Source: Marsupella aquatica
Taxonomy: Eukaryota; Plantae; Marchantiophyta
Direction of reading: 5' to 3'
Assembly: GCA_973895155.1 (NCBI GenBank)
Contig: OZ316891.1
Location: 30,449,112 to 30,513,111 of the forward strand
DNA: 64,000 nucleotides
The translations under genes were made by a program, and so were the position numbers. The notes under the pieces are model-generated. The model was not told where the DNA came from. It did no database searches and saw only the letters and a list, made by a program, of their open reading frames with translations. Position 1 is the first letter of the stretch. Every line of letters begins with the position of its first letter. This document shows positions 6,411 through 40,982 of the stretch, one piece after another.

Positions 6411-6426
6411 ACTTGATAACATTTAA

Positions 6427-6921: not shown

Positions 6922-7207
6922 ACAGGAAAGACCGTGGTGAACCTGGCGCGCATGATTGATTGCTGACTGATGGCATCAAAGTCTGTTTTGTGCTGCATGT
7001 TCTGCCCACGTTTCTAAGCAGCGTTTTTTGCCCTCGTCTTTTGCCCCAATCTTTTTTGCCTCATTCTACGCAGCATTTTGGAGCTAGCCGGCCTTGCAGC
7101 ACACATAGGTGGAGCACGGTGAGCTTCACTTTCGATCAAGAGTCTAGTTTCTAAGCTCATTCCTGAGCACCTGTCACAGTCTGCGACCAAGGAGGGTAAG
7201 ACCGGCC

Positions 7208-7789: not shown

Positions 7790-8350
7790 GGTACTCGGGG
7801 AATGCCCCATAAGTAGGATGTACAATCTTCTCAATTCCCAGGCAACTGTAAGCTTTGGTGCAGATTGAAGTTACATAAAGAGATTTTCTACTCAAATGTC
7901 TTTTGTGTCACTCTATATTACACTCAAATTCAGCAATGCAATATAATCCCAGTCTGTTTCATTTCAAATGAAGTGTCCAAATATATTGCAAGGACTCCAT
8001 TACAAAAATGCTGTTACAAAAAAGCCTTTCCCCAAAGAAATTGGATTGCTACCACAGGCAAATGTTGAATTCAATAAATGTTCTTGAAGAAATACTGCTC
8101 CAGTGGTCAGCATTGCCGTTGCATCGCCTCTAAAACCCCAATTTAAGGAATACTGAAGTATTAGATTAATTCCAATTTTATCTAAATATTATTAGTTAAT
8201 GAATGATCAACCTCTTTAACATTTGGTGGGATAGTCAAAAACTTCAAATGTTTTGTTGCAAGATCTTTATAACAATGCATCACTAAATGACATGAAGTAC
8301 CTCTTGATCCATGCACAAATCCTTAATTAAACTATCATTCATTGTTTCAA

Positions 8351-8928
8351 TTGTCTATTTAATTATTATAGGGTTGAATACAAAAAAGATTAACATGCAC
8401 CAGGGTGCGTGACCTACAATCATAGTAAGTACCACCCTTTAATTAATTAGTTTCTTTACAACAATTAATAGGATTGTTGTATATTACAATGTCTACTGGA
8501 CATTCATTTGAATGTCAATAATATCATGCCTTAATATCACCAAACTAAGGGCCCACTAACTAATATTATATCTTAAATAAACTAACCAACTAACTAACTT
8601 GTCTATTTAATTACTATAGGGTTGAATACAAAAAAGATTGACATGCACCAGGGTGCGTGACCTACAATTATAGTATCACCCTTTAATTAGTTAGTTTCTA
8701 TTGCTTTGACTCAATCAGGCATGGAACCATATAAAATCAGAAATCATTGAAAGTTGAGTTCACTTGAGGGTGTAACTATAATTATTATTTATTAATAGGA
8801 TTGTTGTATATTACAATGTCTACTGGACATTCATTTGAATGTCAATAATATCATGCCTTAATATCACCAAACTAAGGCCCCACTAACTAATATTATATCT
8901 TAAATAAACTAACCAACTAACTAACTTA
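8351..8928. repeat. Imperfect AT-rich tandem duplication downstream of the transposase
   Basis: TTGTCTATTTAATT...CAGGGTGCGTGACCTACAAT at ~8351 and ~8599; ATTAATAGGATTGTTG...AACTAACTT at ~8464 and ~8791. Confidence 0.8.
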
Positions 8929-9021
8929 GACGATAAGACTTGTCTAAACTTGAGTTCTCTGGCTACTACTATTCTGAGTTGCCTTTTAAACTGTATGCTA
9001 AACTACATGCTTCATTACTGT

Positions 9022-12000
9022 CTAGGATTTGTCACTTGCTATGCATGTCAAGAGATAGTCTCTTGCCTTGACAGCGACATTCTTTGGAATTCCTACCAGC
9101 CCTGTCATTGGTCCTTTGCATGCTTTGAAACACCACAAGGCAGAGGAAACATCTATTGTCTCAGCTTCCTTGTATATTGGAGATGGATCACGTTCCCATT
9201 TCTTATCCCAAGAATCTGCCCACCGCTCTCTTGGCTGCCAGTCTGATTGACCACGTTGCTTCTTTGCCATAAATGGTCTAAACCACTCAACGCCACATAC
9301 ATGAGTAAGAAGGTTTTGTTCATTCACTGGTCCTTCTACCACATCTGTAACAACTAACCCCATATGGACGGGATAAACATCCAGGTCTGAGTCGTCCGGC
9401 CGTACCAACACATAACAGCCCTTCACAACATCAACCCTAGGGTTAAAACTCTCAGGAGGTTTATCTTTTGCTGGTCCCACATAATCCACTGTTGCCTCCA
9501 ACTCACATGCCACATTTCGATATTCTGGTGGAACGTGCTCTCTCCATACTGATAAAGGCCAAAACCCGTATTCCAAGTTGTGTGCACCTTCAGGTTCATA
9601 TTGCACCTGCTCACCCTGTAGAGTATCTACAATGTCATTCCAATAATTGATGAGAGTTGTCCAACGTCGCTTTGGTTCTTCCTCTTTTGTTCGCTTTAGA
9701 ATAAACTCAAAGAATGACACATGCTTCTTCAATCCTGTCAGCACTTCAGGAAGCATTTTCAACTCCATCATTGGTAGCCGTTTGGGCACCCCAATTGGGA
9801 TGTGAGGACTTTTGTCATCTTTCCATGACCACATTTCAATACCTTCCTTGGGTAACCATCCCTGATCAGTTGACTTCATTTTGTATTGGAAGCATGGCAT
9901 ACTATCATGACGAACATAGAACCTAAACAACCTGGGTTTTAAATGCCCCACCAATGCCTCAGGGCCCTTCAACATGAATGGAGCTAAGTAGTTTTTGAAA
10001 TCTGGGACCTCCTGTAGAAAATGTGGGACTGCATTGGGTGTCCTTGCTCTCATGAACAAGGACATTAATTCAGGCAATGAGTATGTGGGGTTATGCATCA
10101 TAGACTCTGAAAAATGCCCAAACATACCGTCAACGTCCTCATGAGTATGCCCAACCACCATAAAACCAAGATGAACCTCTTCAAACACCTCCCTTGCCGT
10201 CAACAATGACAAATAAGCCATCATATATCTGTTCTTGTTGTCTGAGGCACAATTATCTAGTTGTAGCTTCAATACTCGTGGAAGGGGCCTGAACTTTGGT
10301 GCCTCAGGTGCTGCATCACAATGTAACAATCTCAGAATGCTTTTAAACAAAACCCTAGTCAGACCCTAAACCCCAATTTAGGGTTTAGGGTTTAAACCCT
10401 ATTAATGAAACCTTGGCTAGGAGGAGCAACAACTACACAAAGTAGAGTGTCAGTGTGTGTGAGCTTATATTATTAAATATTAATAAATTTAAGGATTGTG
10501 AGTAAAGTACCTAGGCTTGAGATGTAGGCAATGTCATCCTCAAATGCTCTAAGGACACTTGCCTCCAAGATATCTGCTCTCCCAAAAAGGAGGTCTTTAA
10601 AAAGACTTGTCGAGTCTGGCCCCTCCACAAGTGATTTGATCATTGGATTTGGGTTTTCCAACATCCTTAGTATTGAATCAATTGACCCAATAGTGATGTT
10701 GACATCACCTGGCCACACTCCAACATGATATTGGGCTATGGCCTTGGGACCATGACCATGAGTAAGGATACCAGTGACAGTAATTGGGAACTTTTGGGCA
10801 CCATCCACATGCTTAGGATTGAAGGGCATTCTTGGGAGAGCTGTCTTTGAATGATCCATCTTATCATGAATAAGGCATAACACTTCCTTTGGACGATGGA
10901 TGGACTCATATCTCCAGGTATGATAGCACATTCTTTGTTGTGTGTGGTCTTGGTGATGTTCCTCCTCGTCACGCCTTAGGCCCTCTAACTCTTCCTTAGC
11001 TCCTGTAAGGTTTGCTTTCCGTTGAAGCAACTCACTACAAGTTGTACACTTTGAAAAGTTGTTGCCCTTTTTGTGACGTGAGAACTCCCTGAAATACATC
11101 TGATGTAGATGACTCAAGGTGGGTTGGGAAATTGGAGGAAGACCAGCCTCCTGGTTGACAACATTAACCCTGTTTCTAATATTCTCCCAAGTAAGATTTG
11201 TTGGCAATTCCCTCAAAACCATCCTTGTATTATCTGCCATGGTTCTCAACTTGGCTGGATGATGATCAGCTGCCTCCTCAATAATCTCTTTCATTGACAT
11301 GAACGCTTGAGATACTTTCTCGGACATACGCCTTTTTCCAGCATTACCATGGGTACCTATGTTCATTCCAGCCATCACAGTCTTCTTCAAGGCATAAAAT
11401 TGAGTCTTTCCTCTTGAATGAATGATTCTCCATGCCTCCAAGCACAATACTTTGCCCTCCACTGCTAGAATCCTTTCTCCAGTACCCAAGTGTATTGTAT
11501 TTTTAATAGCCTTGATTTCCTCCTCCTTGCGCTCCGCAAAAGATTTTGACCACCACTTTTGCCTAATTGCCATAGCCAAGTTGCGGTCCAAATATTGGCA
11601 ACAATGTTCACTACAACAGTCCTTAGTGCTTATCAACAACACATCTTGACGTGCCAAAGATGTGTCTCTTCTAGATGTCTGGGAAGATGGACGTAGGACC
11701 GCTTGCCACTTGTTGGAGATGTGTTCCCTCCCACAGCTTGCCTGATGTTGTGGAAAGACAACAAGTTGCCATCCTTGGCAATGAGTTGGTCCATCGACCA
11801 AGCTTTTAAGCAATCTCTATGCTTCAGATGATCTATGGTAGCTCCCTCGACAAAATCTTTGATCAGAATTCCCACATGTGTATTCCCAAGGGTGACATCC
11901 CCAAGCTTGACTATAGGATCTAGAACATGTATAGTTGCCACTGCAAATATCAACTTGTTCTCATCCACCACCTTTACAGGCATGCCCATCCACAAGGCCT

Positions 12001-12372
12001 TTGGTAAAACTACTTCCACACCAGACCGACTCTCATTATGGTTGTTCCCATCAGAATTTTGATTGACTGGATCTTGATCATCACCAACAGTGCCAAACAC
12101 CTCCTCCGATTCCATGGGAGCTCGAAAAAGCTGATTCCTTTCCCATACAAGGTAACCCCCAATCATGTCCTTCAAAAGTTCGCCATCTTCGCATAGAATG
12201 GTCTCGTCAAAAATTCCTCCAATAGAAGAAGAACTCTGTCCGCCCCAAGAGGAACATTGTGACAAACCTTGGAAGGATCAAGACTTATCACGCGACCTTT
12301 TCCAACCTGTTTCTCACGTATGCCTATAATTACTTGTCCGCCTTCCCTGATCCAGACTGTCGATGTCACCAT
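9022..12372 (-). pseudogene. Transposase, DUF7869/Sola1-like DDD type, with two N-terminal Tnp1/En-Spm-like domains; two frameshifts and one intron
   Basis: Motifs FSKCTTC, LIHDKMD, LQLDNCASDNKN and FMVVGHTHEDVDGMFG; N-terminal repeats GRVISLDPSKVCHNVPLG and ATIHVLDPIVKLGDVTLG; GT-AG intron 10510-10311 joins the ORFs in frame; frameshifts near 12240 and 11690. Confidence 0.82.
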
Positions 12373-12439
12373 AATAATTATGATCCTGCACATCAGAGAA
12401 TATCACTGTAAGCGTATAGTCCTGTCATGTCCGTCAATT

Positions 12440-13200
12440 TCACTGCACTGTCCTGTCCCGTCGGTCAATAAGCAGAATGTAGTCAATGCACTGCGCTGCA
12501 CGCGACTGGTCGCGTGACCCTAGAGGTACCACACATACCGGCAACAGACTATGCATGGTCCGTCAGTCATGTCAAATGAATGAGAATGACCACAATTGAT
12601 TACGATCAATCATTTCACATCCACTCAGAACAAATGAGTGGACAGTCAGTAACTACTGAGGACAGTAGTGCTAATAAGCGCCAGTAAAACGTCCGTGAAC
12701 TGCATTGTCCTGTCACAACCGTCAATAAGTAGGCAGAATGTAGTCAATGCACTGCCCTGCACGCGACTAGTCGCGTGACCTTAGTCAGAGGGTGTAGGGA
12801 TAACAGGGTCTACGACGTAGAAGCTAGAAGGCTAGGCCCAAACTCTAGCTCGTACTTGGTACTTCATAAGTAAGATACGATTGCGCGTGAGACAGGAAGA
12901 TACAATTACGGATCTAAAGGCATGTCGCGTGACCGTAGTCAGAGGGTACAGGGTCTACGACGTAGAAGCTAGAAGGCTAGGCCCAAACTCTAGCTCGTAA
13001 TTGGTACTTCATAAGTAAGATACGATTGCCCGCGAGACAGGAAGATACAATTACGGATCTAAAGGCATCACACATACCGGTAAAGATAATGCATGGTCCG
13101 TCAGTCATTCCAAGTGAATGAGAACGACTACAATCGATTACGAACAATCATTTCAACTCCACTCAGGAAAAATGGGTGGACAGTACCAGTTTACCAATGA
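12440..13200. repeat. Nested direct duplications between the divergent transposase and Zn-ribbon genes
   Basis: GCAGAATGTAGTCAATGCACTG...ACGCGACT(G/A)GTCGCGTG twice (palindromes at 12500 and 12761); ~120-bp block ACAGGGTCTACGACG...TAAAGGCAT at ~12802 and ~12948. Confidence 0.8.
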
Positions 13201-13441
13201 GTGGACACCGGACAACTGAACTTCCCGCCAATTCTAATACGCGCCAGTCAAACGCGCACCCTCTTCTAGAAACCACTATGTACAATGACTAGTGGAGACT
13301 AAACAGTATAAAGCATTGAGATGATCTCTATTGCTCATTCCCCCATGCATTCCACTTTCTGGCTACTGGATAATCTATTCGCACATCAGCTCTCTCATTT
13401 CCAATTCTTAGTCTCGGTCAGCATCTCTTGTTTGAAGGGCG

Positions 13442-13982
13442 ATGACTACTCCACTGAGCTCGAATAATGAGGATGTTTCGACGGACGATTCAGAAGGTTC
13501 GACGTATCAAATTCGGGGTACTCCTTACAAAATGTGTCAGCGATGTAATATAATGTTTACGGTGACTAAATCGGGTCAAATGTTTTGTGAGAGACGACAT
13601 TGTTTGCCACATTTGTCGATGGAAGATCAGATGGAGACCAATCCGACAGAGATGACTACAAAGATGGCATCAGGGGAGAAGTTAAAGGGCAAAGCCCTCG
13701 TGGAATCCGTTTCGAGGGGGGAAGTTGAAGGCCAGAGCATGCATCGAATCCATTTCGGGGGAAGCAGCAGCAGACGCTAAGACAGTCAAGAAGGAGGCCA
13801 AGAAAGTGGACGCACCGAAGAAAAGGCAATTAGAGATGAACAAAGATTCTGATTTGTATTACAAAAAGAGCAAGCCGAGAAAATCTATGGACGTTAGGAC
13901 TTGGGCAAAGGAAGAATTTCTGGATTCAAGGGAATCCACACCAGACACCGATGAGTGGATGCCTTCATCTTGGAATGACTGA
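13442..13982 (+). pseudogene. Small cargo gene with a putative Zn ribbon and a charged C-terminus, frameshifted
   Basis: CQRC...CERRHC in 13442-13780 overlaps a Lys-rich ORF 13725-13982 in another frame; TATAAAG at ~13307. Confidence 0.45.
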
Positions 13983-14189
13983 CTCGATCGAAGTCAACAA
14001 TATTTTGAGTAGTCGAAGATTAGAACTACAGATTCAAGAGTAGTTCAAGTTAGAACTTGTTATAGATACTGTGTAGCTTAAATTCCTGGATAGTGCTAGT
14101 GGATATGGATTCCACATCCGAAGTCCTTCGGGATCGATGTAACCATTTTTGCAATCAAGGAAAAATCAAGATTCCTCTGACTGACAATT

Positions 14190-15130
14190 TGCTAGGCTGT
14201 CGACTACAATAAACAATATCAAAAAGACCTGAGATAAATTGGTTCACACGACTGTGCACGTGATGAACTACATGTGTAACCAAAAATAGGTCATCCTACT
14301 AACAAGTTGAGATCAGGCAGATCTGAGAAATAAAGGGCGATTACGTCTAAGAGTGCAGAGCTTTCGCTGACCTCTAAAACATTAACGCGACCGGGCGCGT
14401 GATGAAACGAAGACCTCGGTTTTAAAATATATTTCTGGCCAATTCGCTGGGCAGTCGACTACAATAAACAATATCAAGATAAATTGGTTCACGCGACTGT
14501 GCGCGTGATGAACTACATGTGTAACCCAAAAAACAGGTCATCCTACTAACAAGTTGAGATCAGAAAGATCTAAGAAATAAAGGGCGATTACATCTAAGAG
14601 TGCAGAGCTTTCGCTGACCTCTAAAACATTAACGCGACCGGTCGCGTGAATCAGAACTCAGTTTCAAAATAGATTTCTGGCCAATTCTCTAGGCTTTCGA
14701 CTACAATAAACATTATCAAAAGACACGAGATAAATTGGTTCACGCGACTGTGCGCGTGACGAACTACATGTGTAACCAAAAAACAGGTCATCCTACTAAC
14801 AAGTTGAGATCAGGAAGATCTCTGAAATAAAGGGCAATTACGTCTAAGAGTGCAGAACTTTCGCTGACCTCTAAAACATTAACGCGACCGTGCGCGTGAT
14901 GAAAGGAAGACGTTGGTTTTAAAATAGATTTCTGGCCAATTCGCTAGGCTGTCGACTACAATAAACAATATCAAAAGACACGAGATAAATTGGTTCACGC
15001 GACTGTGCGCGTGACGAACTGCATGTGTAACCAAAAAACAGGTCATCCTACTAACAAGTAGAGATCTGAAAAATGGACCTCGATTACGTTACGTTTTGCT
15101 AGGCCGTCGACTACAATAAACAATAGCAAA
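14190..15130. repeat. Internal tandem array, ~3.7 copies of a ~250-bp unit, each with two ACGCG-N6-CGCGT variants
   Basis: TCGACTACAATAAACA recurs at ~14200, 14455, 14697, 14952 and 15107; units contain CACGCGACTGTGCGCGTGA and AACGCGACCGGTCGCGTGA-like sites. Confidence 0.9.
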
Positions 15131-17644
15131 ACGTACGGACAACTATACGCGTACGCCATACAATTTTAGACTAGAGAATTCATTCGGATCCTCTACTAGT
15201 ACTTCTGATACATTGCTTCTGTATTGGACTTGAAACACGGATTGATCAAACTCGGAGTGAGAAATTGGACCATAACTTCATTGACTCAATTCATGCATTG
15301 AATGCATGATTTAAGGCAACTACTCTCCTCATTTATTGTGGAATTAATGCTGATTGATACTTACAAGTTATTCAGTTGCGTGTGGTCTCAGCAATGTTGG
15401 CGGCAACCCTCCGATGTTGGCGGAAACCCTCCTCCCAGCCAAGCCTCTTCCTTCCAGCGTACCCTCCTCGTCCCAGCCAACTAAGCCTCCTCCTTTGAAC
15501 TCCAATTTCCTTGAGTATCGTGATCGAATCCCACCACCTTAGAATGACAACTTGTTGATCGTATCAAGATCAAAATCCTCGACCAGACTGTGATTTCAGA
15601 ATAGCCGCTCTTTGTTGGTCCGCTAGAATGCTTCGATGAATGAGGCAGACTATGGAGGTTCTAAATGTTTGTCGTCTCGCTTCGTCGCAACTCTCCCGCT
15701 TGATCGGATGTGCTCTCCCCTAGATTGAAGGTGATACAACAAGAACTGCGCCAGCGTTGCTTGAATGAGCTCCGCCTCCGACTGGAATAGTCGAATGATC
15801 CAATCTGCTCTACCTCAAATGTGCCTTGGATCAGCCTCCGCTGAGAGCCCAACTAGTATCCTGGTAAGGAGAAACTGAAAATGAAGAATGATTCGTGAGC
15901 AATGAGATCAGTCTATTGACTCCATGGAGGATGTGTTCATCTGGACTCGATTTTGATTTTGAAAATTGGTTGAGTCTCCAGTCGTGAGAATCATTGTACA
16001 GGATTGATTTTGAATATCGGTTCTCCCCGACCGTGAGAATCGTTTTACGTTGTTTAGAGTAAGGGTTTGAATTGGCAAGATAGAGAGTGGAGTACGGATC
16101 CGGATCCGACGGTCTCCACTACCAAAATGGAATGATTTTGAAGTTTGCCTCCACTACGTGATGGAACGATCGTGAGAAAGTTGTCGTTCGTTCACATTTT
16201 GGATTTGAATTGGCATATATAGTGAAGATACGGATCCGGGGGTCCCCACTAACAATCTTTCGCAGTTGCATAATTACCGATTTAAATTTCAAATTGGCCA
16301 TCAAATAGAAATCTCTTTTAGTACGGAAAATCAAAAGGAATCCGGTAATCTTTTTTTTACGATTGCATAGTTTGTTCAGTCGATGGTGGAGTGTACGGAG
16401 ATCATCTGGAACCTTCCTGTCGCTAGGCTGTTATTAGGGTTATGCTAAAACAATACCCTAATTACTTCCTTAGTGTCGGCGCCCACGGTCTCGAGTTCAT
16501 TGTTCATTGTTGTTGTTTCTCGCTCCCTAGACTTTTGCGCGCCTGCTCTCGTCGCTCTCGCTCCTGCCCTGGATTTCATTTTTGTCGTTGCAGCTCGTTC
16601 GTTGTGGTCAGGTGCTTGTCGGCGCGTTGCAGCTCTTAGTAGTTGTCCATCGTTTCGACCAGGAGCTCGTTGGCGCATTGCAACTCGCATTTACAACTCG
16701 TATTCACTTCTAGTTTGCTAGTTCGTTGCAGCTAGCTTTTTGGGAGTGCTTGTATCAGCTCATGTAAGCCAATTTTAAGCTCATATCAGCTCGATCAACG
16801 TGTTTCAGCAGCTCAAACTACTTTTTGGCAGCTTGTTTTAGCTCCTTCCATTCAGCATTCAGGTTTGTTTCACCTCTTTGAATCTTCAGGTTTAGTGCAC
16901 TTTTATTCATGCTCAGTTTGCCTATCCACAGCTTTGATTGTACTTCTGAAAGAGTCTTTTTAACTCGATATAATGAGCTCCTTAGCATTAAGCACATGTT
17001 ATTCAATTGGTGGCAGCGAAGCTCTATGTATAGAAGTATAGAAGCTGTGTTGTTGTTGCTTAGCATATTAATATCTTCAATCTTATATTTACTTTCTGGA
17101 ATGCCCCAACAAGGTGTTCAAGTGCTTGGACGTCAATCTCTCAGACGATTACATCAATTTTTCAGAATTCAGGTGTAATTTCTACATTTTCTGCTGGTGT
17201 TGATTGTGGTTTGCTAAAATTTCTCTTGATTGTTAAGCACAATTTTCATAATGCGGTTTGTTTGTAAACTCAAATATGTGTGAATCATACAAACTCACTA
17301 ATTAAAATACAACCTGAATCGTCTTAAGTAAGTCATTACAAACTTGCACGCTGTGAATTTAATCATATAAACTCTCATGTTATGTGAATCTCATTACACT
17401 GAATCCTTTAATTGACGAATACAACCAGTAGACTGCTAAATTGAATCATCTTAGCTGGATCATTCTCTAAACTTCTAATCTATAATAGTTTCACAATGAC
17501 AGAGCTCAAACATCTGAATTATTGTAAAGTTCATGAATGAATACAAATGAATGATTATGCTTCCTCGGATTTCCTTGTCCGTACGGGTCAGTAATCACAG
17601 TTGTATCACTGTATTATCCTATTGTCCAAAAGTTGTTTCAGCTG

Positions 17645-19464
17645 TTGACGCGACCAGTCGCGTGAAAATACTATGAGGTTCCTTTTAGGACCAGTTGACG
17701 CGACCAGTCGCGTGTGAGAAGGAAACTGGATAGATTTACTGAGCGCGTACCATATCCAAATCTCCACAGAAGGTTCAGTGGATATAGTTGTTTAGGTTCA
17801 GTTGACGCGACCAGTCGCGTCTGACGTAGATCTCTCATTGACTCGCTCTGTTAGAGGAGGTAAGGTTCCTTTTAGGACCAGTTGACGCGACCAGTCGCGT
17901 GTGAGAAGGAAACTGGATAGATTTACTGAGCGCGTACCATATCCAAATCTCCACAAGGAAGGTTCAGTGGATATAGTTGTTTAGGTTCAGTTGACGCGAC
18001 CAGTCGCGTCTGAGGTTGCTCTCTCATTGACTGGTTCTGTTAGAGGAGGTAGGGTTCCTTTTAGGACCAGTTGACGCGACCAGTCGCGTGTGAGAAGGAA
18101 ACTGGATAGATTTACTGAGCGCGTACCATATCCAAATCTCCACAAGGAAGGTTTAGTGGATATAGTTGTTTAGGTTCAGTTGATGCGACCAGTCGCGTGT
18201 GAGAAGGAAACTGGATAGATTTACTGAGCGTGTACCATATCCAAATCTCCACAAGGAAGGTTCAGTGGATATAGTTGTTTAGGTTCAGTTGATGCGACCA
18301 GTCGCATTTGAGGTTGCTCTCTCATTGACTGGTTCTGTTAGAGGAGGTAGGGTTCCTTTTAGGACCAGTTGACGCGACCAGTCGCGTGTGAGAAGGAAAC
18401 TGGATAGATTTACTGAGCGCGTACCATATCCAAATCTCCACAAGGAAGGTTCAGTGGATATAGTTGTTTAGGTTCAGTTGACGCGACCAGTCGCGTCTGA
18501 GGTAGCTCTCTCATTGACTGGTTCTGTTAGAGGAGGTAGGGTTCCTTTTAGGACCAGTTGACGCGACCAGTCGCGTGTGAGAAGGAAACTGGATAGATTT
18601 ACTGAGCGCGTACCATATCCAAATCTCCACAAGGAAGGTTCAGTGGATATAGTTGTTTAGGTTCAGTTGACGCGACCAGTCGCGTCTGAGGTTGCTCTCT
18701 CATTGACTTGTTCTGTTAGAGGAGGTAGGGTTCCTTTTAGGACCAGTTGACGCGACCAGTCGCGTGTGAGAAGGAAACTGGATAGATTTACTGAGCGCGT
18801 ACCATATCCAAATCTCCACAAGGAAGGTTCAGTGGATATAGTTGTTTAGGTTCAGTTGACGCGACCAGTCGCGTCTGAGGTTGCTCTCTCATTGACTTGT
18901 TCTGTTAGAGGAGGTAGGGTTCCTTTTAGGACCAGTTGACGCGACCAGTCGCGTGTGAGAAGGAAACTGGATAGATTTACTGAGCGCGTACCATATCCAA
19001 ATCTCCACAAGGAAGGTTCAGTGGATATAGTTGTTTAGGTTCAGTTGACGCGACCAGTCGCGTCTGAGATAGCTCTCTCATTGACTGGTTCTGTTAGAGG
19101 AGGTAGGGTTCCTTTTAGGACCAGTTGACGTGACTAGTCGCGTCTGATGTAGATCTCTCATTGACTGGCTCTATTAGAGGAGGTAAGGTTCCTTTTAGGA
19201 CCAGTTGACGCGACCAGTCGCGTGTGAGAAGGAAACTGGATAGATTTACTGAGCACGTACCATATCCAAATCTCCACAGAAGGTTCAGTGGATATAGTTG
19301 TTTAGGTTCAGTTGACGCGACCAGTCGCGTTTGAGGTTGCTCTCTCATTCACTGGTTCTGTTAGAGGACGAAACAACATTTATGATTTCACGTTGTGACC
19401 CGAAAAAATCAGTCTCTCAAAGAATTGTTTATGCATTCTGATTTGTAGACGCGACCAGTCGCGT
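17645..19464. repeat. Internal tandem array, 189-bp unit built from 109-bp and 80-bp modules, with ~20 copies of the palindrome ACGCGACCAGTCGCGT
   Basis: GTTCCTTTTAGG at 18352, 18541, 18730, 18919 and 19108 (exact 189-bp period); a palindrome starts every module. Confidence 0.97.
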
Positions 19465-19505
19465 GAAAATAATCTCTGGGATATATCATTTGGCTGAAAA
19501 GAGTC

Positions 19506-19988
19506 ATGGGCGAACCTGGTCTGGAGAGCTTCAGATATCTATGCCCAATATTTGACGTTTTGGACAGAAGCCAAGATGGTCTACTTGCGGGATATTCTGT
19601 ATTTGTTGAAACACTACTACCTGGACTTCCAGATTTCATTGTCGCGGAATTGATATGGCCTCGGATCCAGGAGACTTTTAATTCCTCGGCTAATGCAAGA
19701 AATTTCTCAATAAAGGAATTGGATGAGTTTGTAGGACTATCTTCGGTGTGTCGCAGATGGCGCCACCTTGTTGGGAATACCTATCTTCTGGGTGTAATCA
19801 AGTTGAGTTTATTAGATTTGGCTTTCCCAGGAAATCCTACTAAACCGATCGGAAATGAGTCTCTCTCATCGACAGTTCAAAGTTTCTTCCAGAAATACCC
19901 AAGAATTAAATTCATGGGGTCAATGTCCACAGATCTTAGGGAACTCTTCACGAAGACTTACGATGCTCTTCACCCTCTTGAAAAATAG
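19506..19988 (+). CDS. F-box-like cargo protein 1
   Basis: LLPGLPDFIVAELIWP...LSSVCRRWRHLV, plant F-box pattern; open frame. Confidence 0.7.
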   Translation: MGEPGLESFRYLCPIFDVLDRSQDGLLAGYSVFVETLLPGLPDFIVAELIWPRIQETFNSSANARNFSIKELDEFVGLSSVCRRWRHLVGNTYLLGVIKLSLLDLAFPGNPTKPIGNESLSSTVQSFFQKYPRIKFMGSMSTDLRELFTKTYDALHPLEK

Positions 19989-20122
19989 AAATTTACAGTT
20001 AGATGCCACGAAGTTGGATACCTTGAGGGTGACATCTACGCTTTTAAGGAATTCTAGTTAACTTACGTGACGAAGCGTGTCGTATGTCTTCTAACAATGT
20101 TTTGTGATATGATAAAAGCAGG

Positions 20123-20689
20123 ATGAGCCAACTTTTGAATGAGGCTCGAGATTTCCTTTCATCTCATGAAAAGAAATAGAAAACAATATGGGATACGCTG
20201 GATGAAACCTCCTCTAGTCTCATTGGAGGAATACCAGATATTTTGGTCATTTCAAACATTTGGCCAATACTCTACGAACACTTTATTTCAATTGAAAGAT
20301 TGTGTGGATATCGACACCTCGATAACGATTTGGTTATCGATAGGGTCCGAGACCTTATTCGGCTTGGAGCTTGTAGCAAGAAGTGGAACTTTTTAGTTAC
20401 AAATACAAGGTTATGGGCTATCCTCAAACAAGCAAACCGGATTGTCGATGTCGCAAATGATGCTCTTTACAACATACCCGAAACTGAGGAGTTGGAGTTT
20501 GACTCAGTCTGTCGAGTTATTCGACAGGATATTTCTATGCTTCCAGAAATATCTGTTCTTGGGACTACTACTTCTGAAAAAATCGCATTGTTTACGAACA
20601 AATATAGGAATTTAGATGAGGAAGAACGAGATGTTCTAATCGAAAGGTTTGGTAGATTTTCTAAGAATCTTGGTGGTCCCAGTTCTTAA
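20123..20689 (+). pseudogene. F-box-like cargo protein 2, one in-frame TAG
   Basis: ATG at 20123 is in frame with ORF 20243; TAG at 20177-20179; LIGGIPDILVISNIWP...LGACSKKWNFLV. Confidence 0.65.
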
Positions 20690-20723
20690 TGGATAGGTTC
20701 TTGTTCTTAATCTTTTCCATATT

Positions 20724-21254
20724 ATGTTGCAGTCCTTTGACATGAATCGAAAATCTCATCGTCAAATGATGATGGAGCGCATTGCACGTGCAAAGGTTAT
20801 GAACCGAAACATGATATGGAGTCAAGCTGAAGACCTGATACCCGGTCTTCCGGACGATATTGTCGAGAAATATATTTGGCCATTAGTCAAAGAGTTTTTC
20901 CACTGTCTTGGGAATTTGTCGGATACTGCAATTAAAAATCGGGTCATGGACTTGATCGCCATTCGAACAGTCAGTAAGAAGTGGTGCCACATAGTTACTT
21001 ATAGTAGTACATGGGCGACGGTCACCTTGGTAGCTTACGACTTCACTAATAGACCAGGATATGAATCGCTTCGAAGGCATTTGACTTCACGGAGTGTAGC
21101 ATTAAGATTTACAGAATCCATCAGAACTCTCCCGCCGCTGGACATTCTGGGTGGATTTGAAGGATCTGAACTTGACACGTTTAGGAACCTTTGGTTTTGG
21201 TTAGATGAAGATGAGCGAGAAGATTGGGTCAAGATAAATGTTCCTAAAATGTAA
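20724..21254 (+). CDS. F-box-like cargo protein 3
   Basis: LIPGLPDDIVEKYIWP...IRTVSKKWCHIV; shares the C-terminal LDExER motif with copy 2. Confidence 0.75.
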   Translation: MLQSFDMNRKSHRQMMMERIARAKVMNRNMIWSQAEDLIPGLPDDIVEKYIWPLVKEFFHCLGNLSDTAIKNRVMDLIAIRTVSKKWCHIVTYSSTWATVTLVAYDFTNRPGYESLRRHLTSRSVALRFTESIRTLPPLDILGGFEGSELDTFRNLWFWLDEDEREDWVKINVPKM

Positions 21255-21329
21255 TTCGGCACGACGCGACCATGCGCATGTTAGTATTTTATAATAAACG
21301 TTTAACTTTCAATATTTGTCTATTTCAGA

Positions 21330-24300
21330 ATGGATCCTACCGGAACCTCAAAGCGGAAAGAAGACTCGTCTAAAGCTGCTTTTCGAAAGAAAGCCAAGAC
21401 AAAAATGACTCCCGCGGAGACATCCATACTTGCATATCGAGGAAAGTCAATCAGAGAGAGAACAACGGAGACAAAGAGTATCCATCTCTTTGAATCGACT
21501 GAGATATCCAATTTTGGAATAGTCGTTCGCAATGGGGCTGTCCGTCTTGTGGTGGCAAGAAATGATAAAGCTACAGTTTTGGAGAGATCAAAAATTCTCG
21601 GGTGTTTCTTTGAGAAGAACATGAAAGTTAAAGAGTGTACAGAGGGATTGGTTCTGCTAGTAAGCGACGACCAGCAAGAAGACAAAATAAGCATTTGTTT
21701 GGATCGAACGCAATATGTAACCTTCAATCAGCCCTGAATCGATGATCTTCTAGGTGCAAGGCACGCCTTGGAAAAGGTTACTAGTGTGGGATATCCTTCC
21801 GATCCAGAGGCATCAACGGGAGATTTGATTTGTCAATACATTATTGACGTACTTGAGTTCCAGAGAGTTCCTTTCAACCAGGGATTTCGCTTGGGAAAGG
21901 CACCGCCAGTGAGCAAGGTTGAAGTATACTCGGCGAAGAATCTTCCGAAAGTAATTACCTTAGCGAATATCGGGGCTTTGTTCGATTCTTTCCTCAAAGA
22001 ATATAGTGCTGTGAATATATTTAACAAAAAGTCATTTTTTGTTGAGACATCACGTTGTCATCTTGCACCGGACCACATCAAGTGCCGAGAGTGGAATCAG
22101 GATTACACAGATAGGCTAAAGAATTCACTCCTCTCTCATTCGGCTATAAAGTTCGAGAAGTGATGCTACTTTTTAGTCCCTGTGAAGTGGGTTCAGTCGG
22201 AGGCCGACAGAGATCCCGACTACAATGGGACGCCCTACGATTCATCGCCAAAGGAGGAGGACATTATGACCAGTCATTTCTGGATACTCGGAGGCCAGCA
22301 CACAATAATGGCGTACAAATTGTTGAGAGAGGATGACAAAGTCAGCCAAGTTGTACGAGATGCTTGCGGTATTGTAGAAGCTGTAATGTTTTGGGCAACG
22401 CTCAACAACGACAATAATGTTCATTTGATGGGATTATCGAAAGCTCTGAACCACTGTCATCAAACATCAATGGAAGAAGGACAGTTTCTCACCATTGTAT
22501 GACAGTGTCGTAATATCTGGAACTCATTTGGGCGGCCTGGATCATATTATCGTCATCCAAATTGGAAGGTATATAAATAACCCTCTTCGATCACATTATC
22601 GTATAAACTTTTGTCACGCGAACGGTTGCGTCAAGCTTAGAATTGTCATGTTTCCATTGTTTTTCAGGTATTTATGAGAGCTACGAGTTTTGTCTGCCCA
22701 TGGGCTCAAATGGGGAAGAACGAAATGATGAAATTTGGAGAATTGGCTCCGTTTTTCTTTACAATGGAGGACGAAACATTCAAGAAGTGGATGGAGGTCT
22801 ACGAACGATCAAGGACAGGAGAGCTTTTAATTTACAACGGAATTGTACAGAGGGACGCCATCAAAATTGCGGATAATCCGTGTGCTTATCATCTTCTGAA
22901 GAAGACGTTCCTTTCTTGTCAAGGGTGCTCAGACTCGATTCTTCGAAAGGCAACGGAATATATGTTGAGCGGAAGACTGTCTATACTCAAAAACCGAAGC
23001 ATCAAAGTGAAATCTGGGAAGGCGAGGAAGTCCTCTGAGGCTCCAGTGTTGTCAACGACCAACATGAGTTTGGAGCAATTCTGTATAAAGAAGAAGATGA
23101 AAGTTGAGTTTGAGATTTTATTATTGAGTAAACTCAACGGGGAAACATCCACCCGGACAGAGCTGAAAAGTCTGACAGATTCAGCGCGGAAATTGTGGGT
23201 CAAAGGAATGATTGATCGCTTTAAGCTCGACAAGATGGTGCTGAAGCAGTTGAGAGATGCGTTGAGTGGTTATCTGAAGAAGTGCTTAAATGTAAATATT
23301 AGTAATGATAATTTGTTGAAGGAGATCGACCCTATATTCTACAGGTTGGTGGAAGGAATACAGAAATCAGTTGATAGTCAAGGAAACCAACTAGTGCGGC
23401 CGGTCGGTGAGAGGCTGAAATTGCAATCCCTGCAGGATATACAAAATACTGGGTTTGCAGACTGTATCATACGTGAAGACAAGAACCTTGCGAGCTTGAT
23501 TTATTTTGATCCCTCATCAATGGGAGATTTGCGTCCGCCAAATTGCTCATTCTATGAGGGGTTATTTTGTGCTACTAGCGAGATAGGGGCAAAACCACAC
23601 CATGTGGTTATTATTGTAGCCTCTCCCGTTGAGTCTTACTTAATCAAACGGGAATTAGGGAAGTACACACACTACGTTGCTGTCGATAGCCATTATATTC
23701 AGAAGAGGCCGAAGGAGAAGAAGCTTATTGTAACCTACGCTTTTCACAGCTTGGCCTTCAGCACAATGGGCGATCCACAAGCCCTCGAGTTCCAATTGGT
23801 CTCCAAATATCAGATTGAAAAAATATCCAATTTTGAAGAGAGCGACGAGTTCACGACACCTTCCCCAGAGAGGAGAAAGCCCAGGCGGAGAAAGCCCAGG
23901 CTGAGAAAGCGGAGGCTACGAGAGTCCTTTTAGTGACAGAGGAAAATAGGGCCAAGGCGGAGAGTGAGGCGGCTGAGAGGCTTCTGGCCGAGAGGATGGC
24001 GGACGAGACCGCAAGACCGGAGAGGGTGGAGGCGAAGAAGTTGGAGGCGGAAAAGGTGGATACCGCAAGACTGGAGAGAGAAGAAGCCGCAAGACTGGAG
24101 GCAGCGAGGAAGGAGGCCGAGAGGGCCAAGGATCTTTCGCTTATTCCTGAGGCACAATGTCTACCAAAAATAAGGCTGAATTTGAAGAAGCCTTCTTCAC
24201 CCTCAGTTGCAGTTAAGAAGAAAACATTAGACTATTTTCTTCGCCCGGAGTTTGAATTTAACGATCCACCCTTAAGTACGGTCTCGTTGGATGATTGGAA

Positions 24301-24805
24301 TAAATATTCACCGGAGCAGCTCCGAGTCCAGGCAGTCCTTGCTTTGCAATATTGGAAGGGTCTTTTGATTACCGAGGAGAAGACTGCCACTGCATCCAGA
24401 ATGGAGACAATCATCAATAATGTGCGCTTTTCCGAGAATCGAGTGCAAGACCTGGGAACGTTTTTGGCACCAGACTCGGCTCAAGTCGTTAAGAGACTAA
24501 CAGCTGACTTGACGCGACCGGGTTTGTGGTCTCGACCCCGATATATTGCAGAGGTGACTCGCGCAGAAATTGTGGCACCGGATATTTTGGAATCGGATTC
24601 CCAGATTGTGGAATATTTGAATCAAATGCCACAACCATTTGAAGGTCTTCCCGCCTCATCGCTCCAACCTTCGCAAACTGGTCCGGTGGAGCGATCACTA
24701 CGGTCTCGAGGAGGGCTGAAGGATGTTGTTGCGATTGAGGCACCCAAGAGATCAGCTGCGAAAAGGCCGGATCCACCCAATCCAAAGGTCATTCGCAAGC
24801 TATAA
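21330..24805 (+). pseudogene. Large cargo gene: ParB/Srx-like domain, possible degenerate methyltransferase-like domain and E/A/K/R-rich coiled coil
   Basis: ORFs 21330, 21768 and 22182 are one frame broken by single TGAs (21735, 22161, 22500); a phase-0 intron at ~22570-22667 joins ORF 22674; frameshift at ~23865 into an EEKAQAEKAQ coiled coil. Motifs CREWNQDYTDRLKNSL, FWILGGQHTIMAYKLL, LSKALN and ASLIYFDP. Confidence 0.6.
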
Positions 24806-24939
24806 GCTTAAAGTTTCTATTATAGACGTCATTATTTTATTATTGATCTGTTATTGTTTCTGTTTTCTGAGGCTACAACCCTTAGGCTACAACCTCAGTA
24901 CGTTATTTGAAGGCGTTCTGAAATCTCTATTTTTTGCAG

Positions 24940-25728
24940 TTTTTTGAAAATTTGGCTAGTCGAATAGATCAATGCCTTGATCCTTCTAAGGATATGGAAG
25001 AGCTATTGACCAAGTTCTTACAACACTCGATCAAGAGGAAACATATGATGTGTCTGAGACCGCGCGAGTTGCTCACCGGTGATATAATTAACGCTTATTT
25101 GAGTTTTCTCGAACTGATTCTCGATAGAGTTGGAAAGTCAGACCTTGTCAAATTCTTCCAAACACACCATTTTGAGCTTCTCTCCATGGATCCTACCATT
25201 TTCGACGAGGAGAGAGCAGCTTGGACAAAGGAGTTTCCGCTAAAAATCAGTGAATATGAGAAATTGGTCTTTCTAGTACACAATGCTGTGAAAGAACATT
25301 GGTCATTGGTAGTCTTGTATCCGAAGGAGAAACGGCTGGAGTACCTAGATTCTCTAGTTCATAATCGACAAAATCCTGGGGTGCTAGATATTGTTGGGAA
25401 GTACTACGCCGACGAAATTGGTTGGAGAACTGGTGTCAACTTGGATCTCTCAGGTTGGGAATGGATATATCGGAATGATATTCCTCACCAGAGTGACGGC
25501 CACAGTTTTGGTGTGTTTATCTTGAGATACGCCAAGTGCTTGTGTCAAGGAAACGGAATTAATTTTGCCGCGGATCAAATTGAGAAATTCCGTAGGGAGA
25601 TAGTCTTGTCGTTATTTGACATGGACTTCCGCAAGCCGACGTCCGCAAGTAACCTAGTTACCGGGATCCGTGCTGCTATGATTGACATTTCCGGCAGAAT
25701 TCCAGCACTGAACGACCGTCTTGTATAG
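24940..25728 (+). CDS. Ulp1/peptidase C48 SUMO-protease domain exon; catalytic Cys replaced by Phe
   Basis: LRPRELLTGDIINAYL, KEHWSLVV, YLDSL and IPHQSDGHSFGVFIL (canonical PxQxNxxDCGVF); preceded by acceptor TTTTGCAG. Confidence 0.88.
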   Translation, partial: FFENLASRIDQCLDPSKDMEELLTKFLQHSIKRKHMMCLRPRELLTGDIINAYLSFLELILDRVGKSDLVKFFQTHHFELLSMDPTIFDEERAAWTKEFPLKISEYEKLVFLVHNAVKEHWSLVVLYPKEKRLEYLDSLVHNRQNPGVLDIVGKYYADEIGWRTGVNLDLSGWEWIYRNDIPHQSDGHSFGVFILRYAKCLCQGNGINFAADQIEKFRREIVLSLFDMDFRKPTSASNLVTGIRAAMIDISGRIPALNDRLV

Positions 25729-25812
25729 GTAATACACTTCATTTCAGTGTCTCTCTTTGTAGTCACGCGACCGTTCGCGTTATAAACTTATTTTCATTTC
25801 TTAATGTTTTAC

Positions 25813-26720
25813 AGAAGCCTATCCCGAAACCCCCTGATCGAGTATTGAAGGCACCAGTCCGGAAGTCCGGTGATCGTCCGGAGGTGGGAAACAAACAGAC
25901 CATTCTAGTACATTCTCCAAACCCTGCGGCACAAAAATCATAGGTACAGATGGCGCCTAATCCATCGGCAAAGAAGTCACCGGTTCAGAAGAGACTTGTA
26001 ATTTTTGATCTGAATCGGGTACTTATCTGGTCAGAGAAGATCAGCCCTGGGATGCCCATTCGGTCAAGGGGTGTGAGACAGATGCACAAGGTTATCTATC
26101 CAAGGCCTGATTTAATGGAATTTCTTGAGCAGGTGGCAGATCTATACGACATTGCGATCTGGTCGTGCATGTTCAAACGGAATATTCTATCTTGTGTAAG
26201 GTTGATACTTCGACCCGAAGTTTTGAAACGTATTAAATTTATATGGGGACAAGAATCAACTCGACTTATTGGGAAGAATAATAATGACATCCCTTTATTT
26301 GTCAAATGTCTCTCGGACATTGCCGCCGATATTAAAGATTACAACATCGAGAATGTCATTCTTATCAATGACGCTGCATATAAGACGAGCCTTAATGACT
26401 TCTATTCATCGCTGTATCCCGATGCATATTCTGGGCTCGATGATGACCTATTTTTTAGAAAGAAACTATATCCATATCTATGCAACATGTCAATTGACAA
26501 GTTGACATTCCGCGAGCTCCTTAGTGGATATGGGATTCCAACGTTCTCTCAAGAAAATCTTGAGAAAGATTATATTGATAAGACGAATCTTTGGAGGAGA
26601 AACGTGATCATTCGTAATCAGGGGAATAAAGACCATTTAGAAAAGTTTGATGAATTTATGAAATACTTATCTGCCGAAAAAGACCATGCTATAGAAGCCC
26701 GGGATAAGTCCAATAAGTAA
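25813..26720 (+). pseudogene. FCP1/NIF-family HAD phosphatase domain 1
   Basis: LVIFDLNRVL, PRPDLMEFLE, DIAIWSC, LFVKCLS and NVILINDAAYK; the frame from acceptor TTTTACAG has an in-frame TAG at 25941. Confidence 0.8.
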
Positions 26721-26845
26721 ATGTTTATTGTTTATTATCAATTATTATTTATAAATTGATTGAAATTGAACTTTTGGGAGTGACGTGCCCGGTCGCGTGG
26801 TTGTTTGCAATTGCATAATATGAGAATCGAATTGTTCATTTACAG

Positions 26846-27553
26846 GTGTCTAAGTGGAGCAGGTCGCGTCAACTTCTAGTTTTAGGACTGGAAAACTTCC
26901 TGTGCTCTGTTTCAAAATATACTCCTCAGCTCAAGTCGGCACCCGGAATTCGTATTGGATCTCTATGTGTCATTCCGAGGCCGCATCTTCATGATCTTAT
27001 AAAATTCTGTTATGATCATTTTGATGTGATGGTCTGGTCTATTCTCGACGATAAACTGGTTTATCAGATACTTTCAGAAGTGTTGTCGAGCACCGACCTG
27101 TCGCAGCTGATATATGTGTTCATGCGGGATCATTGCTGGAATCTTGGTTATGTGAAGAAAAATTATAAGACTGTTGTCTTCAAATCTATCGAGAGACTAC
27201 GTGATATGTTTCAAGATTATCGACCAGAGAATATAATCCAGATTGATGCCTGTCCTTCCCATACATGCCAGACAGTTGTATGCGGATTATTGTTCGCTAA
27301 GTTGTTTCAAGGATTGTTGGATGATGTCTTTTTGAGGGATGACCTCATTCCATATTTACGAAAGCTATCAAATTCAGGGCTTTGTCTTGCGTTCGCTAAC
27401 AAGTTCGATTATCCCATCTGGTCGATTAGAAATCTACATCGAGATTGGGATCTGAACGAGGATATATGGGAGCATCTGTACGTGCAGAGACATGCGGATC
27501 AAGTTCTTATCAAGCACTTCAACAGACGTCACTTATCAATGGCCAGAGTGTAG
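26846..27553 (+). CDS. FCP1/NIF-like HAD domain 2 (catalytic Asp motif lost)
   Basis: LLVLGLENFL, PRPHLHDLIKFCYDHFDVMVWS and NIIQIDA; begins at acceptor TTTACAG. Confidence 0.75.
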   Translation: MSKWSRSRQLLVLGLENFLCSVSKYTPQLKSAPGIRIGSLCVIPRPHLHDLIKFCYDHFDVMVWSILDDKLVYQILSEVLSSTDLSQLIYVFMRDHCWNLGYVKKNYKTVVFKSIERLRDMFQDYRPENIIQIDACPSHTCQTVVCGLLFAKLFQGLLDDVFLRDDLIPYLRKLSNSGLCLAFANKFDYPIWSIRNLHRDWDLNEDIWEHLYVQRHADQVLIKHFNRRHLSMARV

Positions 27554-27639
27554 AGGATGTTTTCTCTGTAATATGTGACGCGACCATTCGCGTGACTACA
27601 TCCATACGGGCTCATGCATCTTCTTGTGTTTCTCTACAG

Positions 27640-28368
27640 GAGATTCATTGCAGCAGAGAAAACGGGCTCATAGTTTTAGACGTGGAGCATCTACTCTGTT
27701 ACACTGCACCGCATTCCCGACTGATGGCGGTCTCAACTGGAATTCGGATTGGGAATATATACATTTTTCCAAGGCCTCATCTTCACGAATTCTTGAGATT
27801 CTGTTTTGAGAATTTCGATGTAGGGATCTGGTCCTCTCTTGGGAAGAACCTTTTAGATCAGATTTTAGCATCTATTTTTAATGCGATGGAAATGGCCTCA
27901 TTTAAGTATATTTGGGATCAGTCTCATTGTTACTTATGCGATGGGGTGACATCAAATAAGCGGATATTTTTGAAGTGTTTTGAGAAGGTTGGAATTTATA
28001 CGAAGGCGTATCTGCAGCAAAATATAATGCTTATCGAATCCGATGCATTTCATGCTTGTTTAGATCCTGTTGTTGGATCATTATTTCCGCCCAAATATTT
28101 TGGGTCGGTCGACGACAGTTTCCTGATTAACTTGCTGATTCCGTATCTTAGCAAGCTAGCAAACTCTTGTGAGCCGCTTGTCATTGCCAATGGAAGAGAT
28201 TATCCAGATTGGTCAGTTAAATCTATTTTTAGAGATTATGATTATAATCATACTCTATGGGAAGACCCTGTGATTCAGAGGCATGGAGATAGATATCTAG
28301 TAGAGCAATTTAACAGACGCCCAATTTTGGACGCTTCCAAAATAATAGTTGGCATGAGATCAGATTAA
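27640..28368 (+). CDS. FCP1/NIF-like HAD domain 3, paralog of domain 2
   Basis: LIVLDVEHLL and PRPHLHEFLRFCFENFDVGIWSS; a phase-0 intron (~27548-27639) would fuse it to domain 2. Confidence 0.8.
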   Translation, partial: EIHCSRENGLIVLDVEHLLCYTAPHSRLMAVSTGIRIGNIYIFPRPHLHEFLRFCFENFDVGIWSSLGKNLLDQILASIFNAMEMASFKYIWDQSHCYLCDGVTSNKRIFLKCFEKVGIYTKAYLQQNIMLIESDAFHACLDPVVGSLFPPKYFGSVDDSFLINLLIPYLSKLANSCEPLVIANGRDYPDWSVKSIFRDYDYNHTLWEDPVIQRHGDRYLVEQFNRRPILDASKIIVGMRSD

Positions 28369-28859
28369 TTTGTATTGTCGTTCTAGAAACCATTTGTAAA
28401 CTCCTTATATACTGGTTATCATATATAAAGGATCTCAAAGATTTATTTCTCTATTATTATTATTCGCGTGAGCATGTCTCTTGGTCCCGTCAAGTTGGAT
28501 TGGTTAAAATGTGACGTTGCAGTCATTTTCAGGGTTTCACGCGCAGCCACGCGTCATGTCGCCCCCTTTTTATTAAAATAATAATATTTAGTGATTTTCG
28601 GAATTTCCAAAGTTTGGTTTTCCTTAAATTGGGGTTCTAAGCTGCAATCGATCATGGGCGGAGCTGCACAAATACTGCCAAGCATCGAGAGCCAAGTCTG
28701 TCACTGGAACTGGAAGTTGAAAGGCAAAGGAGAATGTCCTTCCTGTGCAAACATCGACTGGAGTTTTTGATGGGCTAAAACATGTCCGGGGGTTTGTGAA
28801 AGGGAACTCGAACATAAGCTCCTGAGTGTGCAAAAATGTCGAGAGTTGTTGAGGCTGAG

Positions 28860-29342
28860 GCAAAACACTGATTCTTTGTGTGCCGCCTCAACTTCGAGTG
28901 TGCAATGCAGGGCCGGGGCACATGTGTAAACATTCGCGAGCCTTTGTCGTGAACAAAAATGATCGCCCTGGTGAAAAATGTGAGCTCCTTTCGAGAGGTG
29001 TGGAGGGCCAGGAAACATGGGTGGGGGTTTGAGAGGGATCGGGCCATCGGGGCTCCCGCTCCCGGGTCGCAGTTTCCCCTTTGCAGTGCTGCACCTAAGA
29101 GGGGTCCTGCCCAAAAACAAAGATCCCGGGACCAAAGCGATAGCCCACGACGGGGGAGGGGGGAAAGGGAGATCCGGGCTGGTTAGTGACGTGGAATCAC
29201 GACTTGACATGTGGCAGCGGGAACCTGATGATGAGTTAAAAGTAACCCGTATACGGAAAGGGAGGCAAGCTGACAAATAAAACTGTTTGGGGGACAGGAT
29301 AGGAATTTCGCCTAGTTAGGGGGATGGGATAGTAAAAAGCTG
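28860..29342 (-). repeat. Right terminal inverted repeat of the giant transposon
   Basis: Reverse complement of 6427-6921. Confidence 0.95.
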
Positions 29343-40959: not shown

Positions 40960-40982
40960 TAAAAAGGTGGTGCAGGTACGTG

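Follow-up and report, generated by a model that had tools for sequence, protein, structure and literature searches.

A fixed-spacing palindrome in a nested Sola1-like transposon of the liverwort Marsupella aquatica, and a predicted ParB-fold protein as its candidate binder

What protein, if any, recognises a 16-bp palindrome (ACGCG-N6-CGCGT) that recurs within one transposon of a liverwort, and to what end? The question is raised by a 64,000-nt stretch of the Marsupella aquatica genome (GenBank assembly GCA_973895155.1, contig OZ316891.1, positions 30,449,112 to 30,513,111 of the forward strand), which is the window of this study and the source of all coordinates given here. An earlier, sequence-only reading had proposed, by analogy with the VANDAL elements of Arabidopsis, that the palindrome is the site of a dimeric DNA-binding protein and a cis-acting tag for the whole element. 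Our analysis assigns the sites to a Sola1-like DNA transposon nested inside a second element, and it suggests that the palindrome is a docking site for a dimer of the transposon's own predicted ParB-fold protein, whose occupancy would keep the block of cargo genes less methylated and expressed. We put the probability of this reading at roughly one half.

The palindrome and its placement

The palindrome is a real, non-random feature. Twenty-eight exact copies were found in the window, all within 12500-28554, while 100 dinucleotide shuffles gave a mean expectation of 0.00; with one mismatch allowed, the count rose to 33 versus 0.18 expected, and the addition of three two-mismatch sites (14244, 18290, and 20063) brings the total to 36. 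Twenty of these lie in an array of 80- and 109-bp units and seven in a 255-bp array, two form a pair (12498 and 12759), and the remaining seven are single. All the palindrome coordinates listed in the earlier reading hold, and its statement that the half-sites and their spacing are kept also stands, as 6 bp was the only spacer with matches when lengths from 0 to 20 were tried. The central six bases, which had been called variable, are not free: over 13 distinct contexts, A follows the core in 21/26 half-sites and C comes next in 19/26. Before the core stands C or G (24/26), itself preceded by T (19/26), and the extended consensus, T[CG]ACGCGAC-NN-GTCGCGT[CG]A, is longer than first described. 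Positions 2 and 19, although they are nearly always C or G, pair in just 3 of the 13 contexts; the half-sites thus vary independently, which is the pattern of a protein half-site and not of a stem. The flanks had been described as unrelated, and this is correct on average (28% pairwise identity over 30 nt among 14 sites), with the exception of 12498 and 12759, whose common, duplicated left flank is identical at 27 of 30 positions. When all palindromes with 5-bp arms were scanned, ACGCG-N6-CGCGT ranked first in the element, with 6 clusters of exact matches; outside it, 3 clusters were reached by A/T-rich arms only. With up to one mismatch, no palindrome was found in the window outside 12498-28556, leaving 43 kb of flanking DNA without a match, and the motif is indeed restricted, as had been noted, to the region inside the long terminal inverted repeats (TIRs). 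These repeats, however, delimit the outer element, whereas the sites belong to the nested one. The 20-mer also occurs once in each of two phage contigs, which we treated as chance.

All sites in the window are non-coding by our own exon calls, in agreement with the expected enrichment in non-coding DNA, and the six single sites of the cargo block all fall within the 12% of it that is predicted to be non-coding (P 3e-6, same calls). Three gaps carry no site, namely the transposase intron, the gap between the second and third F-box-like open reading frames (ORFs), and the gap before the Ulp1 ORF. Sites are also missing from the first 4,364 bp of the element, which make up its transposase part, and they therefore do not tag the whole element, a description that was too wide. 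What is left of the earlier proposal, a self-tag in cis bound by a dimeric protein, is favoured by the fixed spacing, the independent half-sites, the non-coding placement, and the presence of one site per sub-unit in two unrelated arrays. Contigs from 4 of 7 listed sequencing runs were compared with the window over 19400-29500. At 20063-20082, a site with two core mismatches in the window, the letters at 20072 and 20078 in the contigs of all four runs reduce these to one, and one subfamily contig of run X2 does not align over 28537-28570, the span of the last site. Sites would multiply by tandem duplication, single ones being retained where coding is undisturbed.

The nested element and a candidate binder

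Judged by its termini and genes, the motif-bearing element is Sola1-like and not a VANDAL. It has AACCC..GGGTT ends, of the AACC..GGTT type seen in Sola1 elements, TIRs of about 60 bp, and a 4-bp target site duplication, CTAA, that ends in A. Its left end was placed from sequence alone; at the right end, read depth falls beyond the boundary and two contigs of run X5 leave the window sequence at 28636. VANDALs are Mutator-like elements, and the transposase here is of the DUF7869 type. A Pfam scan of 18 ORFs of the window gave no match at E<=0.1 to the VANC domains (DUF1985, DUF287) or to Mutator transposase families; the transposase ORFs match DUF7869 only, a family for which our literature search found no paper. 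The VANDAL analogy can thus be kept at the level of function, not at that of the transposase. Summed depth inside the inner element was 534-2318 in run X1 and 1176-4381 in run X2, versus 73 and 151, and 115 and 552, respectively, in the outer TIR bins; this depth, which is not a copy number, is in keeping with multiple copies of the inner element that fall into diverged subfamilies. The outer element (6426-8133 and 28637-29343) is a 2.4-kb long-TIR non-autonomous element with a duplication of 8 bp (AACATTTA) or 10 bp (TAACATTTAA), and we take it to be Mutator-like from the lengths of its TIRs and duplication.

The best candidate for the binder of the palindrome, based on structural modelling, is the product of a ParB-like gene that begins at 21330 on the strand opposite to the transposase; neither this protein nor the nesting of the element was part of the sequence-only account. 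The gene has 28 relatives among 1.84 billion proteins, homolog ORFs stop at the same W-K/E-V position as the predicted intron, and exon 2 has 2 homologs. The structure was predicted on an intact homolog (P0003, 38% identical, alignment of 34 sequences, pLDDT 74.9), and the accessory protein is accordingly predicted to have a ParB/Srx fold: the model matched PadC (Z 8.6, root-mean-square deviation 2.8, 96 residues aligned) and KorB (Z 8.5, deviation 2.7, 93 aligned), and 8/8 rows with Z>=5 were of ParB/Srx type, among which we count, as our own assignment, SbnI and Atu1540. The PH-like domain of the same model stayed at Z<=4.9. In Foldseek, the top rows were ParB, PadC, Noc, and Srx, with E values of 0.01-0.06.

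Several observations on this protein weigh against the reading that we prefer. No Foldseek row reached E<=0.001, and a Z of 8.6 is modest. The arginine of the GxxR motif is replaced (GQH[T/S]) in the window copy and in 13 of the 34 alignment rows, which are all those showing the motif; this arginine of ParB box II is required for nucleotide binding (10.1101/2025.10.10.680097; here and below, statements on cited papers refer to the portions of them that were available), and its loss makes a cytidine triphosphate (CTP) clamp doubtful. A helix-turn-helix gave no profile match, and the single-sequence model of exon 2 was unusable (pLDDT 34.8). A methylase-like domain in exon 2 is suggested by eye only, by YFDP/YLDC/FLDS at a place like that of motif IV, the methylase pattern used for the comparison; these are degenerate and include no canonical motif, and searches of Pfam, NCBIfam, PHROGs, and PDB sequences and a phage tblastn gave the domain no support. 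Atlas searches returned nothing at >=0.9.

The CpG contrast and the competing readings

The observed/expected CpG ratio is 0.94 in the site-bearing block, 0.26 in the transposase part (8134-12000), and 0.65-0.67 in the flanks. The same contrast is found at synonymous positions, where NCG accounts for 125/554 NCN in the site-bearing block versus 7/211 in the transposase (P 3e-12). As the most likely explanation, a dimer of the ParB-fold protein would bind the arrays densely and the introns and spacers singly, it may spread outward from bound sites, and its occupancy would lower methylation of the cargo block and maintain its expression, in what would amount to anti-silencing; the Ulp1, F-box, and NIF cargo could possibly assist by acting on host silencing proteins. 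We infer the identity of the binder, its action as a dimer, the spreading, and the anti-silencing alike. A more ambitious version of this proposal is tentative and, in our opinion, rather doubtful. In it, a bacterial ParB-fold protein that lost the canonical CTP-binding arginine became a sequence-specific anti-silencing factor of a land-plant transposon, loaded on about 36 parS-like palindromes; with help from the SUMO protease, F-box, and pseudo-phosphatase proteins encoded beside it, this factor would hold a 16-kb block free of methylation on an evolutionary time scale. It would be the second such system in plants, independent of VANC, with retained CpG as its readable footprint.

Further results tell against anti-silencing by occupancy. 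CpG changes abruptly near 12.0-12.5 kb and shows no decay with distance: depletion is seen in transposase codons less than 800 bp from a site (1/32) but not in cargo codons at 1.2-1.6 kb from one (18/69). With a step and no gradient, a module swap, in which the cargo was captured by an older transposase module, would also explain the data, and the contrast fits both. In the window copy, moreover, each of the 9 deviations from the core is a CpG transition, and of 18 private C>T/G>A changes, 13 lie in CG or CHG compared to a background of 36% (P 0.002); these changes were drawn from 32 of the 40 differences listed from a total of 899, after 4 minority rows and 4 outer-TIR rows were dropped. Both findings imply that the sites were unprotected in this copy, as expected of a silenced, dead one, and the window copy, which shows methylation-type decay, is dead: it has three stops in exon 1, a break at 23869-23873, where contigs of X1 and X2 have loose ends and other copies of the gene continue, and a difference from other copies at the catalytic Cys position of Ulp1. 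Lastly, a metagenome scan retrieved 2 loci only, one of which (L001) is a chance antisense match in bacterial DNA, and the sole true relative (L002; 1.2 kb, CpG-poor, and distant) carries no site.

An unlikely alternative is that the same ParB-fold protein binds the palindrome for control of transposition or transcription, by compacting or pairing the 20-kb element or by autoregulating the cargo, and that the CpG contrast arose when an older, long-methylated transposase module acquired the cargo. The sharp CpG step without distance decay argues in its favour, as do the location of the last site near the right end, the two more sites in the divergent promoter region, and the presence of KorB, a transcription regulator, among the top fold matches. 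Accessory genes of the PAG type, besides, move between red-algal transposon families (10.1101/2025.02.11.637652). The distribution of the sites is, however, asymmetric, the first 4.3 kb from the left end being free of them, and the family includes contigs of less than 90% identity and yet the cargo of this copy retains CpG in a CpG-depleting genome, so that a long-term escape from methylation would still be needed unless the capture was recent.

It is quite unlikely, in our view, that another protein of the element binds the sites, be it the transposase or the product of the Cys/His-rich ORF at 13436-13982, in the manner of VANC, TnpA, or a transposase. Transposases and TnpA have been reported to activate, in a sequence-specific manner, the elements that encode them (10.64898/2026.08.24.746577), and VANC binds motifs in non-coding tandem repeats (PMC5735166, PMC10398659); the palindrome, however, is unlike the TIR sequence, the small Cys/His ORF has no family match, and published arrays of inverted repeats co-occur with ParB-like genes (10.1101/2025.02.11.637652).

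Binding by a host factor, with the sites acting as an amplified enhancer, must be considered very unlikely. CAMTA, or another factor that recognises a CG box, had been put forward as an alternative binder; each half of the palindrome does contain CGCG, a separate perfect GCGCGT is present in 7 copies of the 109-bp unit, and the cargo ORFs are preceded by the large array. The vCGCGb consensus, however, fits only 7/70 half-sites (3/26 in distinct contexts), which disfavours CAMTA, the CAMTA consensus does not include a fixed inverted spacing of 6 bp (PMC10417383), and the flanking DNA of the window is devoid of matches.

Equally hard to credit, and highly improbable in our judgement, is a role of the palindrome as an RNA hairpin steering splicing or 3'-end formation of a multi-ORF transcript. 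Six single sites are followed, 32-47 nt past their end, by a predicted 3' splice AG, and phase 0 is common to the three NIF acceptors; short introns, however, impose such a placement anyway, the outer positions show neither co-variation nor compensatory change, folding z-scores range from -2.3 to +1.6 over 8 regions, no Rfam family was identified apart from one chance match, and sites are also found in arrays and upstream of the opposite-strand gene. That the sites are a functionless by-product of tandem duplication is just as improbable, for even though two arrays hold 27/36 sites and a duplication another two, the sites occupy thirteen contexts with unrelated flanks, always outside coding sequence, and their hypermutable CpG-rich core has been retained.

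Relation to known systems and other features of the window

An element of this kind has already been proposed in algae. Sola1-1_Ec32 of Ectocarpus (21,549 bp, AACCG-CGGTT ends, 4-bp target site duplication ending in A) has its best transposase match in Sola1-1_PPa and carries a ParB-like plus methylase accessory gene whose product is proposed to bind and modify the element that encodes it (PMC12477816). The inner element resembles it in size, in its AACC..GGTT ends and 4-bp duplication, and in having the ParB-like gene opposite to the transposase strand. It differs in the length of its TIRs (282 bp in Sola1-1_Ec32), in having a by-eye methylase-like candidate instead of a predicted N4/N6 methylase, in its extra Ulp1, F-box, and NIF cargo and land-plant host, and in its palindromic sites, none being reported for Sola1-1_Ec32 in the available portion of that paper. 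PAG3 of red-algal Plavaka transposons likewise has a ParB-like domain and is encoded in a giant DNA transposon; inverted repeats form tandem arrays next to its gene, and self-binding was proposed there (10.1101/2025.02.11.637652). Those elements, unlike ours, have an EnSpm/Plavaka transposase and a 2OG-oxygenase partner domain, whereas the inner element also has single sites in introns and spacers and a readable CpG footprint. With VANDAL/VANC of Arabidopsis, described as the one transposon system for which binding and modification of its own sequence is known (10.1101/2025.02.11.637652), it shares a short motif amplified in non-coding tandem repeats and likely, by analogy, a function in sequence-specific anti-silencing; VANC motifs, however, are 8-9-bp non-palindromes (PMC5735166, PMC10398659), and the DUF1985/DUF287 domains of VANC have no match in the scanned ORFs of the inner element. 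Other papers provide context only (PMC4738411, PMC13229309, PMC5751038, PMC11417382).

Bacterial ParB/parS, Noc/NBS, and KorB (structures 6sdk, 7nfu, and 8qa8) are similar in their ParB/Srx fold and in having multi-copy palindromic sites in cis, parS-type sites being palindromes of 16-20 bp. The plant system is nonetheless not a canonical ParB/parS clamp, as the GxxR arginine is missing, a helix-turn-helix was not found, there is no ParA, and eukaryotic introns and an N-terminal PH-like domain are present. Literature searches found no description of such an element in a land plant, a weakly supported absence, considering that they also missed both algal papers; what is new here is the land-plant host, the richer cargo, the intronic sites, and the readable CpG contrast. 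A direct test of binding and anti-silencing in a plant is possible, since the element belongs to a multi-copy family, has a site defined to 20 bp and a candidate protein to bind it, and resides in a host with CG/CHG-type decay. A positive outcome would reveal a bacterial DNA-segregation fold reused for epigenetic self-protection, and it could provide a small sequence-specific tool.

Table 1. Coordinates of the nested elements, their predicted genes, and the palindromic sites.
Feature	Position	Strand	Remarks
Outer host element	6426..29343	.	TIRs of ~490 bp (93%); ~2.4 kb without insert; no palindrome of its own
TIRs of outer element	6426-6921 and 28860-29343		93% identity
RNase H1 N-terminal-domain (Cauli_VI) ORF of outer element	7148-7699		
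Inner motif-bearing element, Sola1-like DNA transposon	8134..28636	.	20,503 bp; TIR alignment, CTAA on both sides
Left TIR, inner element	8134..8197	+	Begins AACCCCAATTTAAGGAA; CTAA before it at 8130-8133
DUF7869 DDE-type transposase gene	9022..12277	-	Pfam PF25273, E 1e-36; intron ~10341-10510; 5' part provisional
Two-site duplication	12498..12778	.	Sites 12498 and 12759; upstream of transposase
Broken ORF with Cys/His cluster	13436..13982	+	Possible zinc finger (by eye); no Pfam match
255-bp array	14185..15066	.	Two unrelated sub-units, one site each; 7 sites, spacing 106-141 bp
189-bp array	17646..19466	.	109- and 80-bp units, one site each; 20 sites including both end sites
Three F-box-like ORFs	19473..21254	+	Pfam F-box, E 0.0016-0.04, under cut-off
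Decayed single site	20063..20082		Between first two F-box-like ORFs
Single site	21262..21281	.	Between stop of third F-box-like ORF and ParB-like gene
ParB-like gene, exon 1 (predicted PH-like and ParB/Srx-fold domains)	21330..22568	+	GGQHT replaces GxxR; 3 stops in window copy
ParB-like gene, predicted intron	22569..22667	+	GT..AG in phase; holds a site
Single site	22614..22633		Within predicted intron of ParB-like gene
ParB-like gene, exon 2 (helical region, low-complexity linker)	22668..24805	+	Break near 23869-23873
Ulp1 (Peptidase_C48) ORF	24943..25728	+	Pfam, E 3e-13
Single site	25763..25782	.	Between Ulp1 and first NIF ORF
Three NIF/FCP1-like ORFs	25815-26720, 26846-27553, 27640-28368	+	Pfam NIF, E 1e-9 to 1e-14
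Single sites	26781 and 27576		In gaps between NIF/FCP1-like ORFs
Last site	28537..28556	.	80 bp from right end of inner element
Right TIR, inner element	28573..28636	-	CTAA after it at 28637-28640

The origin and organisation of the cargo (Table 1) were also considered. Scans of viral and prokaryote genomes found no relative, and a giant-virus origin of the cargo was dropped for lack of a viral relative; searches for full-length homologs found none, which is weak evidence of absence. We also dropped the possibility of integron-like cassette sites, since no recombinase ORF was present among the 18 scanned and the gaps look like introns. Between 19473 and 28368, eight or nine ORFs follow each other head to tail on one strand, each preceded by a short gap with a splice-acceptor-like AG, and they encode a single giant protein or else act as alternative last exons. 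The catalytic motif of NIF phosphatases is DxDxT, and where it is expected the three NIF domains read DLNRV, GLENF, and DVEHL; they are therefore likely to be pseudo-phosphatases. In the Ulp1 ORF, it is the position of the catalytic Cys in the window copy that differs from the other copies. Within the transposase intron (10341-10510) lie telomere-like repeats and a segment similar to the terminus of the element itself (CTAAACCCCAATTTAGGG), which may be an internal site for the transposase. A possible decayed ORF (15368-15930, minus strand), with the 255-bp array on one side and the putative promoter region on the other, gave no family match for two scanned pieces.

Elsewhere in the window, host genes at 34391-35911 and 57330-59643 encode a transferase-family (BAHD-type) and a chorismate-binding (anthranilate synthase-like) protein, respectively. 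These genes, together with the introns, indicate a land plant, and the Sola1 element of Physcomitrella fits a bryophyte in particular. Another element, at 37904-40960, has inverted repeats of about 205 bp (38017-38221 and 40756-40960) and a 290-aa ORF without a Pfam match. Several 35/36-bp tandem arrays at 41836-45012 have AAGATGTC in common, a 19-bp AAGATGTC repeat is present at 1273-1331 as well, and inverted repeats connect 957-1062 with 51856-51928; these arrays and the linked repeats possibly belong to a larger, older element.

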